64,000 nt of DNA from Octopus vulgaris (Eukaryota): assembly GCA_951406725.2 (NCBI GenBank), contig OX597828.1, forward strand, positions 51,150,001-51,214,000, written 5' to 3'. Positions within the stretch are counted from its first letter, which is position 1. Every line of letters starts with the position of its first letter. This document shows positions 14,185 through 60,106 of the stretch, one piece after another. The notes under the pieces were generated by a model, which was given only the letters and a program-made list of their open reading frames with translations, ran no database searches and had not been told where the DNA came from. The position numbers and the translations under genes are program-made.

Positions 14185-15600
14185 TATTCTATGTTTGACT
14201 TTTGCGTTACATTTGCACAAGCTGGCTCCAAGTCTCACCCAGAGACCTCAAGAGACAACAAGTTGGAAGTTCGTGTTGGTGTTATGCCTAGGGTGCCATA
14301 TATTTGGTTTTGTACTTAGTGTTGTACTAGTGAATGCCTAAAAAACCATACGAAAATTGTGTTTGTTTTAAAACTTGAGATTACATAGAAAGTATTTTGC
14401 GTAGGATATGAGCAGTTCCCATGAGCACTATCTTTTGGCATTTTTGAGTTTCCTGGTATCTGCGTTAGGTAGCAATCAGCCCCTTTTGCTATCATTCCCA
14501 GGGCACCTATGACTACAGGTATTGTTTTAGTCTTCAGGTTCCACATTTTGCTGATTTCTATTTCAAGATCTTTATATTTGCTCAGTTTTTGGTAGGTCTT
14601 GACAGATACGTTTATATCGATTGGGACAGTCATATCAATGAGGAGGCATGTTCTTTGTTTGAAGTCTTTCAATATGATGCCTGGCCTATTTGCATCTATC
14701 TTTCTGTTAATTTGAATGGTGAAGTTCCAGAGGAGTGAGATGTGGTCATTTTCAAGCACTGGAGGTGGTTTGTGTTCCCACCAATTTTTTTTATGGTGCA
14801 AGTCCAGGCTTGTGAAAATTACCCAGTGAATATATTGTGCAGCTCTATCATGCCTGTTGAAGTACTCTGTAGGCGCGAGAAGACTGCACTTGGAGACAAT
14901 ATGATCAATGGTTTCATTTTGTTGTTGACATACTCGATATGTTGGGCGACTGACGTTCTTTAATATGTTGGCCTGGTAGTTCCTTGTAGGTAGGCATTGA
15001 TCTTGAGCTGCCAGGATAAACCCCTCTGTTTCAGATTTTAAGCCAGAGGCCATTAGCTATTGATGGGTGAGGGCTTTGTCAACATCTGCATTATTCGCTT
15101 TCTTTGGGTACTTGCCATTGAGAGGTTTTTCTTGCCATTTATCATTCAGAATATCTAAGGCCGCAGATTTAGCACGGGTTTTCATGCGCTTAGCTTTTTC
15201 TGTGCCTGTTTCTTGTATGTCTATCTCTAATTCCGAAATTTGTTTTATTCAGAATTCACTTAGATATTCCTTTGCCTGTTTTGTTACTGAGTATGATACT
15301 TTCTTGTGTTCATGTTTTGAGACAAGTTTTAACATCCAGTCCCCAGAGGTTTTGCAGGTAGGTGTCTAAGCCAATTGTAGCAATCTTCATTGTTATTGCC
15401 AGTTGCAAAAGACCACGGCCTCCCTCTTTTCTTGGCAGATAAAGTCGTTCTGTATCTGCCATAGGGTGGTGCATTCTATGCATTGTCAACGGTTTTCGTA
15501 TTTTTCTGTCAAGATTACATATTTCAGTAATTGACCAGTTAACGATATTGAAACAGTAAGTCACGACTGGTATGGCTAAAGTATTGATCACTTCGATCCT
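14185..15600 (-). mobile_element. 5'-truncated R4/Dong-like non-LTR retrotransposon (post-RT region, CCHC knuckle, RLE)
   Basis: ORFs 15310-15591 (RLYLPRKEGGRGL) and 14316-15053 (ETEGFILAAQDQ, degenerate CCHC YRVC..ETIDHIVSKC, RHD, KLSKYKDL); 3' end abuts (TTA)n. Confidence 0.9.
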
Positions 15601-30242: not shown

Positions 30243-30367
30243 GTTCTCACCAGTTTGAAGAAAATATCCTGTACCTTGAAATTAAAAATGTTCCTGCGAA
30301 TAGTACAAGAAGCAAAAACGAAGAATATTAATTATAGGAACATCTTTGAAAACATTAACTAAGCACA

Positions 30368-31426
30368 ATGAATCCAATTGTTCTTTGCAAAATTATTGTA
30401 CTCATCATTGTATTTTTATCGACCATAACTGCTGGTTTGTTACCGTTTGTGATGCTGAAATTCTTGAAGCGAAAAGGAGAAGAACATTCTCCATCATTTA
30501 ATAACGCAAAGATAAAAATGATTCTCAGTTGCTTGAATACGTTTAGTGGAGGTGTCTTTTTAAGTGCTTGCTTCATTCATCTGCTCCCTGAGGTGCGCAA
30601 ACACATGCAGAAAATACTGCTGACGTTGAATATCAACACGAATTTTCCAGCAACGGAATTTATAACTATATTTGGCTTTTTCATTATTATAATGATGGAA
30701 CAATACGTTTCACTTTGCATTAGAAAGAATGATAAACACTCAAAAAACAATCAGGATCTTGATGAAAGCGAAACTGGATCTGGAAGCAGTATAAACGGGA
30801 AAAAAGCAGCCTTATACCTACCCGTAGAAGAATCGGATGACACAAATCGACTTGTTTCTCGTCGACTTTCCGTTTCTAGTGTTCATTCTGTAGAATCCAT
30901 GAGAAGTGAAATTCTCAAGCGGGTAGATGTGGACACGCACAATCATGTGCATTTCTCAAACGAAGAGAAAGAATCTAGTTTACGTTCAGTACTGTTGTTA
31001 CTAGCCTTGTCACTTCATACAATTTTTGACGGATTAACCGTCGGTTTGGAAAAGACAGTCAATAACGTCTGGTCGATGTTTACTGCAGTAATTATTCATA
31101 AAATATTAATTGGTTTCACACTTGGTCTGCAAATGTTTGAAAATGCTCAGTGGTCAGTGAGACGGACGATTTTTCTAATGTTTATTTTCTCTGTGATTTC
31201 CCCCATAGGTATTGTGATAGGTATTTTAATAGAAGACCTAAATGTTCAGAGCGTTTCTGAACACTTTGTGTCCGCACTCCTTAAAGCGTTGGCAACAGGT
31301 ACGTTCATGTACGTAACATTTTTTGAGATTCTGGGACGAGAGATTTCTCATGATGCAACACCATTGCAAATATTATTTGCTATCATCGGTTTTGGTATGA
31401 TGACAGAACTTGCATTTTTTGATTAA
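30368..31426 (+). CDS. ZIP (SLC39) zinc/metal transporter, subfamily II (ZIP1/2/3-like), 352 aa
   Basis: Uninterrupted ORF with ~8 hydrophobic segments in 3+5 layout, GGVFLSACFIHLLPE, His-containing loop (HNHVH), TM4 ALSLHTIFDGLTVG, TM5 HK, and ATGTFMYVTFFEIL. Confidence 0.95.
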   Translation: MNPIVLCKIIVLIIVFLSTITAGLLPFVMLKFLKRKGEEHSPSFNNAKIKMILSCLNTFSGGVFLSACFIHLLPEVRKHMQKILLTLNINTNFPATEFITIFGFFIIIMMEQYVSLCIRKNDKHSKNNQDLDESETGSGSSINGKKAALYLPVEESDDTNRLVSRRLSVSSVHSVESMRSEILKRVDVDTHNHVHFSNEEKESSLRSVLLLLALSLHTIFDGLTVGLEKTVNNVWSMFTAVIIHKILIGFTLGLQMFENAQWSVRRTIFLMFIFSVISPIGIVIGILIEDLNVQSVSEHFVSALLKALATGTFMYVTFFEILGREISHDATPLQILFAIIGFGMMTELAFFD

Positions 31427-47860: not shown

Positions 47861-48369
47861 TGATAAAAAAAAGCATACAGTACAGTACTGTTTCTACTTC
47901 GCAGGCTTTCACCTATCGCGGGGCGGGGTTTGGAACCTAACACCCGCGATAGTCGAGGGATTACAGTAAAACAAACAACAGTAAAAATGACTAGGTTAGG
48001 AATAGCAATTATTTCTGGAAAATTAATTTATCTGCTACTAGAGCATGTTGAATATTTGTATATAGGGGGGGGTCCTTTGGCTGCATCTTAGCTCATTTAT
48101 ATTCATATTTATATTCATAGTTTCATGGTTCTTGGTTTAAAATCTCACGTATTACAAACAGCAAAAGATGAACAAAACTTAGCATTAATATAATCTATGA
48201 GAGGAGCTGTACTTCAACGCTAAAGAGAAATGGTAGTGATGGCAATGGTCTTGATAGTTTTGCTGGTGGTGGTAGTAGTGGCGGTTTAAGTGATGGTAGT
48301 AGAAGTGGTGATATTGGTGGTGGGTATTAGTAGGTGTGGCGTTGGTAGCGATTGTAATAGTGATGGTAT

Positions 48370-51300
48370 TGGTAGTGGTTTTGGTGCCGATAGCTTTTGT
48401 GTTGGTTGTAGTTTCAGTGGTAGTCCTGATTGTTAGTGATGTTGATGCTGGTAGTGGTGGTGGTGTTGGTAGTGGTGGTGGTGCTGATAGATTTTATGTT
48501 GGTTGTAGTTTCAGTGGTAGTACTGATTGTTAGCGATGTTGATGCTGGTAGTGGTGGTTGTGTTTGGTAGTGGTGGTGGTGCTGATAGATGTTATGTTGG
48601 TTGTAGTTTCAGTGGTAGTCCTGATTGTTAGCGATGTTGATGCTGGTAGTGGTGGTGGTGTTGGTAGTGGTGGTGGTGCTGATAGATTTTATGTTGGTTG
48701 TAGTTTCAGTGGTAATCCTGATTGTTAGTGATGTTGATGCTGGTAGTGGTGGTGGCGTTGGAAGTGGTGGTGGTGCTGATAGATTTTATGTTGGTTGTAG
48801 TTTCAGTGGTAGTACTGATTGTTAGCGATGTTGATGTTGGTAGTGGTGGTGGTGTTGGTAGTGGTGGTGGTGCTGATAGATTTTATGTCGGTTGTAGTAT
48901 CAGTGGTAGTCCTGATTGTTAGTGATGTTGATGCTGGTAGTCGTGGTGGTGTTGGTAGTGGTGGTGGTGCTGATAGATTTTATGTTGGTTGTAGTATCAG
49001 TGGTAGTCCTGATTGTTAGTGATGTTGATGCTGGTAGTGGTGGTGGTGTTGGTAGTGGTGGTGGTGCTGATAGATTTTATGTTGGTTGTAGTATCAGTGG
49101 TAGTCCTGATTGTTAGTGATGTTGATGCTGGTAGTCGTGGTGGTGTTGGTAGTGGTTTTGGTGCCGATAGCTTTTGTGTTGGTTGTAGTTTCAGTGGTAG
49201 TCCTGATTGTTAGTGATGTTGATGTTGGTAGTGGTGGTGGTGTTGGTAGTGGTTTTGGTGCTGATAGATTTTATGTTGGTTGTAGTATCAGTGGTAGTAC
49301 TGATTGTTAGTGATGTTGATGCTGGTAGTCGTGGTGGTGTTGGTAGTGGTGGTGGTGCTGATAGATTTTATGTTGGTTGTAGTATCAGTGGTAGTACTGA
49401 TTGTTAGTGATGTTGATGCTGGTAGTCGTGGTGGTGTTGGTAGTGGTGGTGGTGCTGATAGATTTTATGTTGGTTGTAGTATCAGTGGTAGTACTGATTG
49501 TTAGTGATGTTGATGCTGGTAGTGGTGGTGGTGTTGGTAGTGGTGGTGGTGCTGATAGATTTTATGTTGGTTGTAGTATCAGTGGTAGTACTGATTGTTA
49601 GTGATGTTGATGCTGGTAGTGGTGGTGGTGTTGGTAGTGGTGGTGGTGCTGATAGATTTTATGTTGGTTGTAGTATCAGTGGTAGTACTGATTGTTAGTG
49701 ATGTTGATGCTGGTAGTCGTGGTGGTGTTGGTAGTTGTTTTGGTGCCGATAGCTTTTGTGTTGGTTGTAGTTTCAGTGGTAGTCCTGATTGTTAGTGATG
49801 TTGATGTTGGTAGTGGTGGTGGTGTTGGTAGTGGTTTTGGTGCTGATAGATTTTATGTTGGTTGTAGTATCAGTGGTAGTACTGATTGTTAGTGATGTTG
49901 ATGCTGGTAGTGGTGGTGGTATTGGAAGTGGTGGTGGTGCTGATAGATTTTATGTTGGTTGTAGTATCAGTGGTAGTACTGATTGTTAGTGATGTTGATG
50001 CTGGTAGTCGTGGTGGTGTTGGATGTTATGTTGGTTGTAGTATCAGTGGTAGTCCTGATTGTTAGTGATGTTGATGCTGGTAGTGGTGGTGGTGTTGGTA
50101 GTGGTGGTGGTGCTGATAGATGTTATGTTGGTTGTAGTATCAGTGGTAGTACTGATTGTTAGTGATGTTGATGCTGGTAGTGGTGGTGGTGTTGGTAGTG
50201 GTGGTGGTGCTGATAGATTTTATGTTGGTTGTAGTTTCAGTGGTAGTCCTGATTGTTAGTGATGTTGATGCTGGTAGTGGTGGTGGTGTTGGTAGTGGTG
50301 GTGGTGCTGATAGATTTTATGTTGGTTGTAGTATCAGTGGTAGTACTGATTGTTAGTGATGTTGATGCTGGTAGTCGTGGTGGTGTTGGTAGTGGTGGTG
50401 GTGCTGATAGATTTTATGTTGGTTGTAGTATCAGTGGTAGTCCTGATTGTTAGTGATGTTGATGCTGGTAGTGGTGGTGTTGGTAGTGGTGGTGGTGCTG
50501 ATAGATGTTATGTTGGTTGTAGTTTCAGTGGTAGTCCTGATTGTTAGTGATGTTGATGTTGGTAGTGGTTGGGTTGTGTTGGTAGTGGTGGTGGTGCTGA
50601 TAGATTTTATGTTGGTTGTAGTTTCAGTGGTAGTACTGATTGTTAGTGATGTTGATGCTGGTAGTCGTGGTGGTGTTGGTAGTGGTGGTGGTGCTGATAG
50701 ATTTTATGTTGGTTGTAGTATCAGTGGTAGTACTGATTGTTAGTGATGTTGATGCTGGTAGTGGTGGTTGTGTTGGTAGTGTTGGTAGTGGTGGTGGTGC
50801 TGATAGATTTTATGTTGGTTGTAGTTTCAGTGGTAGTCCTGATTGTTAGTGATGTTGATGCTGGTAGTGGTGGTTGTGTTGGTAGTGGTGGTGGTGCTGA
50901 TAGATGTTATGTTGGTTGTAGTTTCAGTGGTAGTCCTGATTGTTAGTGATGTTGATGCTGGTAGTGGTGGTTGTGTTGGTAGTGGTGGTGGTGCTGATAG
51001 ATTTTATGTTGGTTGTAGTTTCAGTGGTAGTCCTGATTGTTAGTGATGTTGATGCTGGTAGTGGTGGTGGTGTTGGTAGTGGTGGTGGTGCTGATAGATT
51101 TTGTGTTGGTTGTAGTTTCAGTGGTAGTCCTGATTGTTAGTGATGTTGATGCTGGTAGTGGTGGTGGTGTTGGTAGTGGTGGTGGTGCTGATAGATTTTA
51201 TGTTGGTTGTAGTTTCAGTGGTAGTACTGATTGTTAGTGATGTTGATGCTGGTAGTGGTGGTGGTGTTGGTAGTGGTGGTGGTGCTGATAGATTTATGTT

Positions 51301-54300
51301 GGTTGTAGTATCAGTGGTAGTACTGATTGTTAGTGATGTTGATGCTGGTAGTGGTGGTGGTGTTGGTAGTGGTGGTGGTGCTGATAGATTTTATGTTGGT
51401 TGTAGTATCAGTGGTAGTACTGATTGTTAGTGATGTTGATGCTGGTAGTGGTGGTGGTGTTGGTAGTGGTGGTGGTGCTGATAGATTTTATGTTGGTTGT
51501 AGTATCAGTGGTAGTACTGATTGTTAGTGATGTTGATGCTGGTAGTGGTGGTGGTGTTGGTAGTGGTGGTGGTGCTGATAGTGGTGGTGGTGCTGATAGA
51601 TGTTATGTTGGTTGTAGTATCAGTGGTAGTACTGATTGTTAGTGATGTTGATGCTTGTAGTGGTGGTAGTGGTGGTGGTGTTGGTAGTGGTGGTGGTGCT
51701 GATAGATTTTATGTTGGTTGTAGTATCAGTGGTAGTACTGATTGTTAGTGATGTTGATGCTGGTAGTGGTGGTGGTGTTGGTAGTGGTGGTGGTGCTGAT
51801 AGATGTTATGTTGGTTGTAGTATCAGTGGTAGTACTGATTGTTAGTGATGTTGATGTTGGTAGTGGTGGTGGTGTTGGTAGTGGTGGTGGTGCTGATAGA
51901 TTTTATGTCGGTTGTAGTTTCAGTGGTAGTCCTGATTGTTAGTGATGTTGATGCTGGTAGTAGTAGTGGTCGTGTGTTGGTAGTGGTGGTGGTGCTGATA
52001 GATTTTATGTTGGTTGTAGTATCAGTGGTAGTACTGATTGTTAGTGATGTTGATGCTGGTAGTGGTGGTGGTGTTGGTAGTGGTGGTGGTGCTGATAGAT
52101 TTTATGTTGGTTGTAGTATCAGTGGTAGTACTGATTGTTAGTGATGTTGATGCTGGTAGTGGTGGTGGTGTTGGTAGTGGTGGTGGTGCTGATAGATTTT
52201 ATGTTGGTTGTAGTATCAGTGGTAGTACTGATTGTTAGTGATGTTGATGCTGGTAGTCGTGGTGGTGTTGGTAGTGGTGGTGGTGCTGATAGATGTTATG
52301 TTGGTTGTAGTATCAGTGGTAGTACTGATTGTTAGTGATGTTGATGCTGGTAGTGGTGGTTGTGTTGGTAGTGGTGGTGGTGCTGATAGATGTTATGTTG
52401 GTTGTAGTTTCAGTGGTAGTCCTGATTGTTAGTGATGTTGATGCTGGTAGTGGTGGTGGTGTTGGTAGTGGTGGTGGTGCTGATAGATTTTATGTTGGTT
52501 GTAGTATCAGTGGTAGTACTGATTGTTAGTGATGTTGATGCTGGTAGTGGTGGTGGTGTTGGTAGTGGTGGTGGTGCTGATAGATTTATGTTGGTTGTAG
52601 TATCAGTGGTAGTACTGATTGTTAGTGATGTTGATGCTGGTAGTCGTGGTGGTGTTGGTAGTGGTGGTGGTGCTGATAGATGTTATGTTGGTTGTAGTTT
52701 CAGTGGTAGTACTGATTGTTAGTGATGTTGATGTTGGTAGTGGTGGTGGTGTTGGTAGTGGTGGTGGTGCTGATAGATTTTATGTCGGTTGTAGTTTCAG
52801 TGGTAGTCCTGATTGTTAGTGATGTTGATGCTGGTAGTGGTGGTGGTGTTGGTAGTGGTGGTGGTGCTGATAGATTTTATGGTTGGTAGTTTACTGGTAT
52901 TACTGATTGTTAGTGATGTTGATGTTGGTAGTGGTGGTGGTGTTGGTAGTGGTGGTGGTGCTGATAGATTTTATGTCGGTTGTATGTTCAGTGGTAGTAC
53001 TGATTGTTAGCGATGTTGATGTTGGTAGTCGTGGTGGTGTTGGTAGTGGTGGTGGTGCTGATAGATTTTATGTTGGTTGTAGTTTCAGTGGTAGTCCTGA
53101 TTGTTAGTGATGTTGATGTTGGTAGTGGTGGTGGTGTTGGTAGTGGTGGTGGTGCTGATAGATTTTATGTTGGTTGTAGTATCAGTGGTAGTACTGATTG
53201 TTAGTGATGTTGATGCTGGTAGTGGTGGTGGTGTTGGTAGTGGTGGTGGTGCTGATAGATTTTATGTCGGTTGTAGTTTCAGTGGTAGTCCTGATTGTTA
53301 GCGATGTTGATGTTGGTAGTGGTGGTGGTGTTGGTAGTGGTGGTGGTGCTGATAGATTTTATGTTGGTTGTAGTTTCAGTGGTAGTACTGATTGTTAGCG
53401 TGATGTTGATGTTGGTAGTGGTGGTGGTGTTGGTAGTGGTGGTGGTGCTGATAGATTTTATGTTGGTTGTAGTATCAGTGGTAGTACTGATTGTTAGTGA
53501 TGTTGATGTTGGTAGTGGTGGTGGTGTTGGAAGTGGTGGTGGTGCTGATAGATTTTATGTTGGTTGTAGTTTCAGTGGTAGTACTGATTGTTAGTGATGT
53601 TGATGCTGGTAGTGGTGGTGGTGTTGGTAGTGGTGGTGGTGCTGATAGATGTTATGTTGGTTGTAGTTTCAGTGGTAGTACTGATTGTTAGCGATGTTGA
53701 TGTTGGTAGTGGTGGTGGTGTTGGTAGTGGTGGTGGTGCTGATAGATTTTATGTTGGTTGTAGTTTCAGTGGTAGTACTGATTGTTAGCGATGTTGATGT
53801 TAGTAGTGGTGGTGGTGTTGGTAGTGGTGGTGGTGCTGATAGATTTTATGTCGGTTGTAGTTTCAGTGGTAGTCCTGATTGTTAGCGATGTTGATGTTGG
53901 TAGTGGTGGTGGTGTTGGAAGTGGTGGTGGTGCTGATAGATTTTATGTTGGTTGTAGTATCAGTGGTAGTACTGATTGTTAGTGATGTTGATGTTGGTTG
54001 GTAGTGGTGGTGGTGTTGGTAGTGGTGGTGGTGCTGATAGATTTTATGTTGGTTGTAGTTTCAGTGGTAGTCCTGATTGTTAGCGATGTTGATGTTGGTA
54101 GTGGTGGTGGTGTTGGTAGTGGTGGTGGTGCTGATAGATTTTATGTTGGTTGTAGTATCAGTGGTAGTACTGATTGTTAGCGATGTTGATGTTGGTAGTG
54201 GTGGTGGCGTTGGAAGTGGTGGTGGTGCTGATAGATTTTATGTCGGTTGTAGTTTCAGTGGTAGTACTGATTGTTAGCGATGTTGATGTTGGTAGTGGTG

Positions 54301-55645
54301 GTGGTGTTGGAAGTGGTGGTGGTGCTGATAGATTTTATGTTGGTTGTAGTATCAGTGGTAGTACTGATTGTTAGTGATGTTGATGTTGGTAGTGGTGGTG
54401 GTGTTGGTAGTGGTGGTGGTGCTGATAGATGTTATGTCGGTTGTAGTTTCAGTGGTAGTACTGATTGTTAGCGATGTTGATGTTGGTAGTGGTGGTGGTG
54501 TTGGTAGTGGTGGTGGTGCTGATAGATTTTATGTTGGTTGTAGTTTCAGTGGTAGTACTGATTGTTAGCGATGTTGATGTTGGTAGTGGTGGTGGTGTTG
54601 GTAGTGGTGGTGGTGCTGATAGATTTTATGTTGGTTGTAGTATCAGTGGTAGTACTGATTGTTAGTGATGTTGATGTTGGTAGTGGTGGTGGTGTTGGTA
54701 GTGGTGGTGGTGCTGATAGATTTTATGTTGGTTGTAGTTTCAGTGGTAGTACTGATTGTTAGCGATGTTGATGTTGGTAGTGGTGGTGGTGTTGGAAGTG
54801 GTGGTGGTGCTGATAGATGTTATGTTGGTTGTAGTTTCAGTGGTAGTACTGATTGTTAGTGATGTTGATGTTGGTAGTGGTGGTGGTGTTGGTAGTGGTG
54901 GTGGTGCTGATAGATTTTATGTTGGTTGTAGTTTCAGTGGTAGTACTGATTGTTAGCGATGTTGATGTTGGTAGTGGTGGTGGTGTTGGTAGTGGTGGTG
55001 GTGCTGATAGATTTTATGTCGGTTGTAGTTTCAGTGGTAGTACTGATTGTTAGCGATGTTGATGCTGGTAGTCGTGGTGGTGTTGGTAGTGGTGGTGGTG
55101 CTGATAGATTTTATGTTGGTTGTAGTATCAGTGGTAGTACTGATTGTTAGCGATGTTGATGTTGGTAGTGGTGGTGGTGTTGGTAGTGGTGGTGGTGCTG
55201 ATAGATTTTATGTCGGTTGTAGTTTCAGTGGTAGTCCTGATTGTTAGCGATGTTGATGTTGGTAGTGGTGGTGGTGTTGGTAGTGGTGGTGGTGCTGATA
55301 GATTTTATGTTGGTTGTAGTATCAGTGGTAGTACTGATTGTTAGCGATGTTGATGTTGGTAGTGGTGGTGGTGTTGGAAGTGGTGGTGGTGCTGATAGAT
55401 TTTATGTTGGTTGTAGTTTCAGTGGTAGTACTGATTGTTAGCGATGTTGATGCTGGTAGTGGTGGTGGCGTTGGAAGTGGTGGTGGTGCTGATAGATTTT
55501 ATGTTGGTTGTAGTATCAGTGGTAGTACTGATTGTTAGCGATGTTGATGTTGGTAGTGGTGGTGGCGTTGGAAGTGGTGGTGGTGCTGATAGATTTTATG
55601 TGGTTGTAGTTTCAGTGTAGTACTGATTGTTAGCGATGTTGATGT
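48370..55645. repeat. 97-bp satellite array, ~75 units, strongly G/T-biased on +
   Basis: Unit gatgttgatgctggtagtggtggtggtgttggtagtggtggtggtgctgatagattttatgttggttgtagtatcagtggtagtactgattgttagt; ORF-track starts recur every 97 bp. Confidence 0.97.
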
Positions 55646-56139
55646 GGTGTGGGGCGGGATGGTAGTGACTTTTGTGTGCGCCAATGAAAGTTATTCATTC
55701 AAGTGTTAGCTTGATGAAGTCATTGACCAGAAGTGGCATCTGGGAATTCAGAAGCAATAAATTTGGCAAGAGCTGGTTGCTGGTGGTGGTGGTGGTGGTG
55801 GTGGTGGTGTTGGTGGTGGTGGTGGTGGTGGAGGAGAAGCGAGATGATGTTAAACAGAAAATATCTAATGACTGTGTAACAATGAACAAATAAGTGTAAA
55901 CATACTAAACAGCTGTCGATAAGTTACAAAACAAAATATTCAATTAACAAACAAATACAAAGTAATTAAATGAATCACATTTTCTATTGTCCTTTAATTA
56001 GGGTAACATAAACACAAGTGAAAATGTTCGGTGTATGCATGTGTGTGTTTATATGTATGTTAGTGTGTGTATGTATGCGTGTGTGTTTGTGTGTACGTGA
56101 GTGTATCTTTGTTGAAAACGATTTTATTATTTTCCCAAT

Positions 56140-58329: not shown

Positions 58330-58337
58330 TATATGCA

Positions 58338-58838
58338 CGGGCGACGAGCTGGCAGAAACGTTAGCACGCCGGGCGAAAAGCGTAGCCGTATTTCGTCTGC
58401 CGTTACGTTGTGAGTTGAAATTCCGCCGAGGTCGACTTTGCCTTTCATCCTTTCGGGGTCGATAAATTAAGTACCAGTTACGCACTGGGGTCGATGTAAT
58501 CGACTTAATACTTAGGTCTGTCCTCGTTTGTCCCCTCTGTGTTTAGCCCCTTGTGGGTAATAAAGAAATATGTACTTCGTCTGCCGTTACATTCTGAGTT
58601 CAACTTCCGCCGAGGCCGACTTTGCGTGTTTGTTTCTGTGACTGTGTTTGTCTTCCACAACATCGCTTGACAACCGCTGCTGGTGTGTTTACGTCCCCGT
58701 AACTTAGCGGTTCGGCAAAAGAGACCGAAAGAACTAGGCTTACAAAGAATAAGTCCTGGGGTCGAATTGCTGGACTAAAGGCGGTGCTCCAGCATGGCTA
58801 CAGTCAAAAGACTGAATCAAGTAAAAGAGTAAAGAGAA
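58338..58838 (+). mobile_element. SINE family B (plus partial second unit) joined to a family A tail
   Basis: Matches 45220-45452, then 47640-47860. Confidence 0.8.
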
Positions 58839-58901
58839 TATATATATATATGAATAAATAAATAAATGGAGTTGAACGAAGATGTTAACAGAATTCCTTT
58901 A

Positions 58902-58983
58902 CTCTCGACATATGTTTCGAAGACAACATGGTTTTATTCCAAAGGAATAAACGGTGCAAGATGCAATCTTCTCATCAGGAAAG
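58902..58983 (-). ncRNA. Type I hammerhead ribozyme motif, canonical core
   Basis: CUUUC-CUGAUGA-GAAGA..(extended)..UCUUC-GAAA-CAUAUG-UC-GAGAG; palindromic stem III ACAUAUGU; GUC site. Confidence 0.85.
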
Positions 58984-59632
58984 AAAGGGAGCCTCTCTCA
59001 ACAACAAGACAAAACAATAATTGCGATGACTGCCTACGTGGTAAACAAAACGATAATAAGTGTTTAAAAAAACCGTTAGTAGAATTGACGTCAAAGTTAG
59101 ATAGTAGGAAGAGAAGAGTTAAAGGAATAATAAGTAGGGAACAAGTAGAGAGGGAGGGATGCGTTGATTAAAAGAATGTTCAAACGCTTAGGAAAGAATT
59201 TCTCTATTGAAGTGGAGTGCACGTTCAAGCTATAATGACTATCGAAATCATTTATATGAGTAAAAAGTATGTTTCTGCCAGTGTTTACATTTATACTTAT
59301 AGAAAAATCGTAAAATGTAAACACTGGCAGAAACATACTTTTTACTCATATAAATGATTTCGATAGTCATTATAGCTTGAACAATTAGCTTAACGTGCAC
59401 TCCACTTCAATAGAGAAATTCTTTCCTAAGCGTTTGAACATTCTTTTAATCAACGCATCCCTCCCTCTCTACTTTTCCCTACTTATTATTCCTTTAACTC
59501 TTCTCTTCCTACTATCTAACTTTGACGTCAATTCTACTAACGGTTTTTTTAAACACTTATTATCGTTTTGTTTACCACGTAGGCAGTCATCGCAATTATT
59601 GTTTTGTCTTGTTGTTGAGAGAGGCTCCCTTT

Positions 59633-59714
59633 CTTTCCTGATGAGAAGATTGCATCTTGCACCGTTTATTCCTTTGGAATAAAACCATGTTGTCTTCGAA
59701 ATATATGTCGAGAA
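59633..59714 (+). ncRNA. Type I hammerhead ribozyme motif (mirror copy)
   Basis: CTGATGA 59638-59644, GAAA 59698-59701, GTC 59707-59709; stem III carries a C>U change giving a U-G wobble. Confidence 0.82.
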
Positions 59715-60106
59715 TAAAGGAATTTTGTTAACATCTTCGTTCAACTCCATTTATTTATTTATTCATATATAACACACAAATTTCTGCACATGAACCCGGA
59801 GTTTCTACCCTTGGACAGGTCGCTTCAACCGTGTTTCTGACGTGAATTTGCTACCCTGGTATCGGTTCATCGAATTTTCCATGTTGACGGTAAACTTAGG
59901 ACAATTCATTCACCTATCTATATATATATATATATATACAAAATTAGAAAATGGAGAAACATACTTAAATCAATCAAAGATCAACCATCAGATAATACCC
60001 AATCAATACTTTATTACACCATTACATAACAGCAAAACATTATACAAAATATATTGTAAATATAATTAGACAAGGAAATAGAAATATAAAATATAATTAT
60101 ATCATA

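Follow-up and report, generated by a model that had tools for sequence, protein, structure and literature searches.

The hairpin at 58845-59771 of the window (the whole 64,000-nucleotide stretch of the Octopus vulgaris genome analysed here) is, by its sequence, the 3' end of a Penelope-like element (PLE) of high copy number with a reverse transcriptase (RT) and, at its C-terminus, a GIY-YIG domain, Hydra-like in type, that lies in a (TA)n tract. With a probability of roughly 85%, we read it as a dead-end, 5'-truncated Hydra-like Penelope insertion that likely arose by double priming at two fixed sites of the element RNA ca. 147 nt apart, its two copies likely being joined head-to-head at two shared bases. 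The parent family, the (TA)n target, the two fixed end sites and the presence of one arm at each of them are directly visible, and the locus itself is real but ordinary, one stub among thousands.

Self-alignment of the window returned an inverted repeat whose arms pair over ca. 450 bp (Table 1), and the fold predicted for this interval pairs 898 of its 927 nt at -775 kcal/mol. The hairpin of ca. 930 bp with near-perfect arms that had been described in an earlier, sequence-only reading of this DNA is indeed borne out, the arms differing by three substitutions (58891/59725, 58902/59714 and 58914/59702) and three indels (1 nt at 59142, 1 nt at 59293 and 12 nt, 59383-59394, absent from the left arm). 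In substitutions they are 0.7% apart (99.3% alike), compared to at least 3.3% (median 6.4%) from any other copy, and they have three variants in common that are absent from all other sampled copies. The right copy extends 15 nt further 5' than the left one, and the 20-bp spacer that the same reading had noted (59293-59312) is present but is not foreign DNA, consisting of family sequence in this 5' overhang. Likewise, the ca. 150 bp of unpaired sequence reported between the right arm and (TA)n are there and measure 147 bp (59772-59918); in full or tandem copies, this tail continues into the 5' leader, ca. 60 nt before the ORF start. A dispersed SINE-like repeat lies at 58336-58834, with several further copies nearby, and the insertion sits in the (TA)n tract closing it. 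An antisense ORF at 58866-59171 was considered as a gene and rejected; the letters of its start, read on the other strand, belong to the predicted helix strand whose partner is the real start codon.

Table 1. Features of the palindromic insertion and its target, in window positions.
Feature	Position	Strand	Description
(TA)n target, left side	58838..58851	.	at the end of a dispersed repeat
Left arm	58845..59296	-	inverted, 5'-truncated copy of the element 3' end; stops at end site 1 without a tail, joined to (TA)n; end point is that of tail-less arms elsewhere
Type I hammerhead, left arm	58896..58988	-	catalytic core intact; helix III of 2 bp with a palindromic loop; cut predicted after 58907
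Spacer	59293..59312	.	part of the right copy that overhangs 5'; junction 59295-59296, where both copies share 2 nt; 13-nt unpaired loop 59297-59309
Right arm	59295..59771 (paired part from 59310)	+	5'-truncated copy of the element 3' end (ORF end and pLTR), up to end site 1
ORF end	59316..59357	+	final 13 codons plus stop codon of the RT-GIY-YIG ORF, CxH motif first; in copy L035, an identical peptide closes the ORF
Type I hammerhead, right arm	59628..59720	+	core intact; predicted cut after 59709
Start-codon helix, 5' strand	59742..59751	+	in full-length RNA, it would pair around the start codon of the ORF; 10 pairs kept in 8/8 sequences; partner missing in this insertion
Tail, ~147 bp	59772..59918	+	stretch from end site 1 to end site 2; right side only
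Second predicted helix (tail with 5' leader), 5' strand	59858..59867	+	encloses end site 2; partner missing in this insertion
(TA)n target, right side	59919..59938	.	

The suggestion that this structure is an inverted, truncated pair of Penelope-type pLTRs with a one-sided tail proved correct, and its coding parent was found. With the right arm and tail as query, a first look at the 2.8-Gb genome gave 3,083 candidates, of which the best 40 were scored and all 40 match arm and tail at 90-100%, while an exact hammerhead pattern has 1,065 matches in the genome and its reversed control none. The motifs YRDD, DKT, GIY-YIG-like and CxxC..E..N..CxH are present in longer copies and fit the published Hydra alignment by eye, and a single ORF with both RT and C-terminal GIY-YIG, the hallmark of EN+ PLEs, clearly places the family among them on motif evidence. 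Pfam matches are weak and confined to fragments (RVT_1, E 0.036; GIY-YIG, E 0.015), with no relevant match for whole ORFs, and a PDB search by sequence gave no match. Tandem or partial-tandem copies that form pLTRs (L067-L070, L073-L075 and L077-L079) are spaced by 3.16 kb (L074) and 3.62 kb. At C20:23.33-23.36 Mb (L073-L075), near-full copies of the window family, both tandem and inverted, make up an array of 25 kb, and several of these copies end at a third site inside the tail. A young sister family has many near-identical copies with intact 899-aa ORFs and 3.62-kb head-to-tail tandems (L077-L082 and L113-L142, on many contigs) and was probably active recently.

Within the EN+ PLEs, the family resembles the Hydra clade as defined by motifs in section 11 of PMC8557442. 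With members of that clade, including Hydra-1_Obim and Penelope-13_HM, it shares the C-terminal GIY-YIG, DKT, the CxxC and CxH motifs around E and N, the lack of CCHH and the (TA)n target, which nearly all 3' ends inspected in both octopus families enter. DKT is found in 5/5 family ORFs, and CxxC and CxH without CCHH in all ORFs that reach the C-terminus. Compared to the clade as described in that section, the family differs in its RWL for RWK (in the three ORFs that reach there), in an ORF of ca. 900 aa and a unit of 3.2-3.6 kb where Hydra elements have ca. 700 aa and less than 3 kb, in a long and branched hammerhead helix II with a 2-bp helix III and in the CxCX5C linker, absent from all five ORFs and replaced by 143-168 Asn/Ser-rich low-complexity residues with 0-1 Cys. 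We therefore file the family as Hydra-like and not as a textbook member of the clade. Asn-rich inserts between RT and EN have been described for rotifer Penelopes (PMC3846280). Among the best 120 of 425 database homologues (median 706 aa, 30-43% identity), DK[TS] occurs in 120/120, CxCX5C in 112/120 and RWK in 92/120. In a midpoint-rooted tree of the five ORFs with the best 60 of these 120, a set that holds no named clade references, the five form one long branch (1.6) beside proteins of the CxCX5C type. By-eye comparison of the N-terminus suggests that Hydra-1_Obim is a different family.

The layout of the window insertion recurs throughout the family. A tail-blind sample of 30 loci, drawn like the others from the 30-40 best-scoring matches and not from random copies, comprises 26 distinct insertions including that of the window, and 14 of the 25 others are head-to-head. 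In eleven of these 14 pairs, one arm stops at site 1 (59771) and its partner at site 2 (59918); no pair has a tail on both arms or both arms at site 1, and three are ambiguous (L101, L102 and L107); the 11 single arms are divided into six with and five without the tail. Sampling of the sister family (30 loci and six longer stretches) yielded a tail of ca. 155 bp, junctions that mostly overlap by 1-5 nt and 14 distinct pairs for which both ends could be seen, all of which have a tail-less, site-1 second arm, though this second arm is the only informative one because the query contained the tail. Among the first 100 listed hammerhead matches, seven divergent pairs within 2.3 kb contrast with no convergent one. 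Either arm can be the longer one, and in L085, L106, L108, L113, L121 and L130 it is the tail-less arm that reaches further 5', so that neither arm of these six pairs can have templated the other. L108 resembles classical twin priming in that its tail-only arm meets, without overlap, an inverted arm lacking the tail, and L065 and L082 start exactly after site 1, as if a first copy had halted at the second primer.

One tailed and one tail-less arm in each clean pair points to two primings on RNA. Both strands of a cut (TA)n target would prime DNA synthesis by the element's enzyme, one at each end site, and the template would be uncleaved element RNA, since the arms span the hammerhead cut, with both start sites located 3' of it. 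The two primings may be the work of one complex, and the two truncated cDNA copies would finally be joined head-to-head by microhomology, 2 nt in the window insertion. Poseidon has been reported to behave much like this in vitro: both strands undergo cutting and extension, a tail is bounded by two internal RT start sites, and the template is uncleaved RNA with no need for ribozyme cleavage (PMC11167929).

The best-surviving alternative, though an unlikely one, is that the first cDNA snapped back at the 2-nt overlap and copied itself, or that gene conversion later made the arms alike. Self-priming has been proposed for rotifer Penelopes (PMC3846280), and the 13-nt loop, the small overlap, the arm starts only 15 nt apart and the close likeness of the arms with their three private variants would all fit such an event. 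However, a snapped-back copy would extend into the tail, whereas the left arm goes no further than site 1 of the family, where (TA)n follows, and in at least the six pairs named above neither arm can have templated its partner. Near-equal arm starts occur in ca. 3 of ca. 35 pairs, which by a rough estimate is the chance level, and L092 has an equally small loop, yet its arms are 5.1% apart.

Both arms carry a type I hammerhead with CUGAUGA (59638-59644 on the plus and 58978-58972 on the minus strand), GAAA after a long helix II, and GUC (its last letter at 59709 and 58907, respectively) after a helix III of 2 bp whose loop is palindromic; both point outward. The earlier description of intact, canonical hammerheads pointing outward holds for the catalytic core and the orientation in both arms but not for the helices of the right arm, where two derived changes, at 59702 and 59714, make helix III and helix I weaker, respectively; the left hammerhead is closer to the family, and hammerhead topology appears in the centroid fold of the left arm only. 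Folds of the single arms are no better than those of shuffles (z -1.3 and -0.7), and an Rfam search of the window returned no hammerhead at gathering or E<=10, where only generic miRNA-like hairpins score. Our assignment is based on the letters of the core, on the pairing of the helices and on covariation between families. In 10 copies of the two families, the core is invariant, 6/31 pairs are changed on both sides, and 91.6% of helix cells are paired compared to 38-51% when the alignment is slid; both sides of the helix III palindrome have changed between the window family and its sister. As pairing holds with double-sided changes, the motif was kept in the master lineages. Rare changes among sampled copies, a count biased by the query, number 8/783 in the hammerhead core versus 394/21,271, which gives no decisive sign of purifying selection on the core in the copies. 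An intact pair is nothing special, since 48 of the 56 sampled arms that cover the core have it intact, and the hammerheads of the window are, in our reading, passengers of the pLTR.

Hammerhead cutting as the source of the 5' ends of copies was also considered and rejected, as no peak at the cut site stands out from neighbouring offsets. The 11 pattern matches at the cut correspond to 10 true 5' ends in nine insertions, while offsets of -7, -5, -3, +2 and +4 have 6, 14, 9, 12 and 36 matches and the subfamily-limited offset of +5 has one. Three mini-palindromes (L162, L164 and L166) have both arms starting at or up to 2 nt from the predicted cut, where the counts of single arms have no peak.

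The sequence-only reading had further proposed that the duplex masks the ribozyme and serves as a substrate for ADAR or Dicer. That the antisense arm is made first in either direction of transcription is right for the geometry of a read-through RNA, but a masked ribozyme or a dedicated substrate, while geometrically possible, is unsupported, the layout being a routine by-product of insertion in this family. There is perhaps little to mask, because single hammerheads of metazoan PLEs have been reported without detectable cleavage on their own (PMC4209133; PMC11167929); the outcome that the sequence-only reading named as speaking against it, a one-arm RNA that is not cleaved, is what published work already predicts. 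We consider it very unlikely that co-option has turned the hairpin into a regulatory RNA in which a ca. 450-bp read-through duplex locks the hammerheads and feeds ADAR or Dicer, even though this duplex is predicted to be extremely stable. Hyper-editing is described to hit mainly long near-perfect duplexes, with a very high rate in octopus and heavy editing of a lizard Penelope (PMC5625713), and rotifer Penelopes give rise to small RNAs (PMC3846280). Against co-option, about half of the sampled insertions have the same layout, cores are intact in most arms regardless while the right hammerhead of the window is already decaying, and the 533 rare changes in 66 arms have no A-to-G excess (51 A>G, 109 C>T) that would betray fixed A-to-I editing in the copies. 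A read-through duplex would, in our analysis, be a side effect that is likely edited incidentally if transcribed and not a function. Still harder to credit is a fold-back artefact of assembly or library preparation: long near-perfect palindromes are a known type of artefact, and no listed contig piece from four DNA-type runs spans the junction (the contigs are swamped by other copies), but a fold-back read would mirror tail and flank, whereas here six differences separate the arms, the left arm lacks the tail and ends at the family's site 1, and the flanks differ.

Double priming at two fixed sites of one RNA may have a structural counterpart. A consensus fold of eight pLTR-ORF junctions from both families has 50 pairs, seven of them with double changes (weak covariation, -0.59 kcal/mol), and predicts an RNA domain that encloses both end sites in unpaired linkers and whose closing helix, of 10 bp, lies on the start codon. 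The energy of this domain stands out in the young sister family (z -4.9) and gives no signal in the window family (z -0.5). The stub in the window is predicted to be immobile because the 3' strands of the domain and the ORF are missing. Tentatively, and with somewhat more doubt than trust, we suggest a derived Hydra-like lineage in which one enzyme complex would always prime twice, at sites ca. 150 nt apart within a single folded domain of the RNA that also conceals the start codon; the lineage would still target (TA)n after losing the linker with its proposed zinc-finger role in targeting.

Much of what the window insertion displays is already published, including the inverted 5' copy, the one-sided tail and hammerhead pairs on opposite strands. 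Insertion units of EN+ PLEs are described in PMC8557442 and PMC3846280 as bearing an inverted 5'-truncated copy and a one-sided tail of 30-40 bp, and ours are like them in the head-to-head copy, the tail at one end, the 5' truncation, the pLTR hammerhead and the short junction overlap but have the far longer tails given above. PMC8557442 lists Penelope-13_HM of the Hydra clade with a 5' copy in inverted orientation and with hammerheads on either strand. In Schistosoma PLEs, hammerhead pairs lie on opposite strands 100-700 bp apart (PMC4209133), and the window resembles them in this arrangement and in a helix III that is short and palindromic and, by prediction, would require a dimer; here, both this helix and its palindrome exist, so that our hammerheads, themselves predicted from sequence, are not of the minimal form treated in that paper. 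The two internal RT start sites that bound a tail, 3' of the hammerhead, at an AT-rich target are shared with Poseidon_Ac in vitro, whose sites as described in PMC11167929 lie close together inside the ORF, while those of the window family lie upstream of the start codon, ca. 150 nt apart, and border TA-like letters. What is new is modest and concerns the family: the long tail, the replaced linker and the long, branched helix II. We found no description of a ca. 150-bp tail or a linker-less Hydra-like family in the literature; repeat libraries (Repbase/Dfam) were outside this search, and the family may already be catalogued there.

Other features of the window include a 7.3-kb tandem array (48360-55667) with ca. 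75 copies of a 97-bp unit and a strong G/T strand skew, whose minus strand can in part be read as a Thr/Ser-rich, mucin-like peptide, the 97-bp period shifting the frame and stops occurring in every third unit. An uninterrupted 355-aa ORF at 30359-31423 (plus strand) matches ZIP zinc transporters (PF02535, E 1.6e-55). A 246-aa fragment at 14319-15056 (minus strand) has a CxxC..H..C motif and no Pfam match, and presumably resembles the C-terminal part of a non-LTR element with a restriction-like endonuclease.

For the biology of PLEs, the strict rule of one arm with and one without a long, mappable tail bears on how these elements make inverted insertions, and (TA)n targeting without a linker zinc finger speaks against the linker-mediated targeting suggested in PMC8557442. 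If double priming and the RNA domain prove true, the near-identical, intact sister family would be a ready test system for priming and targeting. For the octopus itself, the many genomic palindromes of this family could raise the dsRNA load of the genome.
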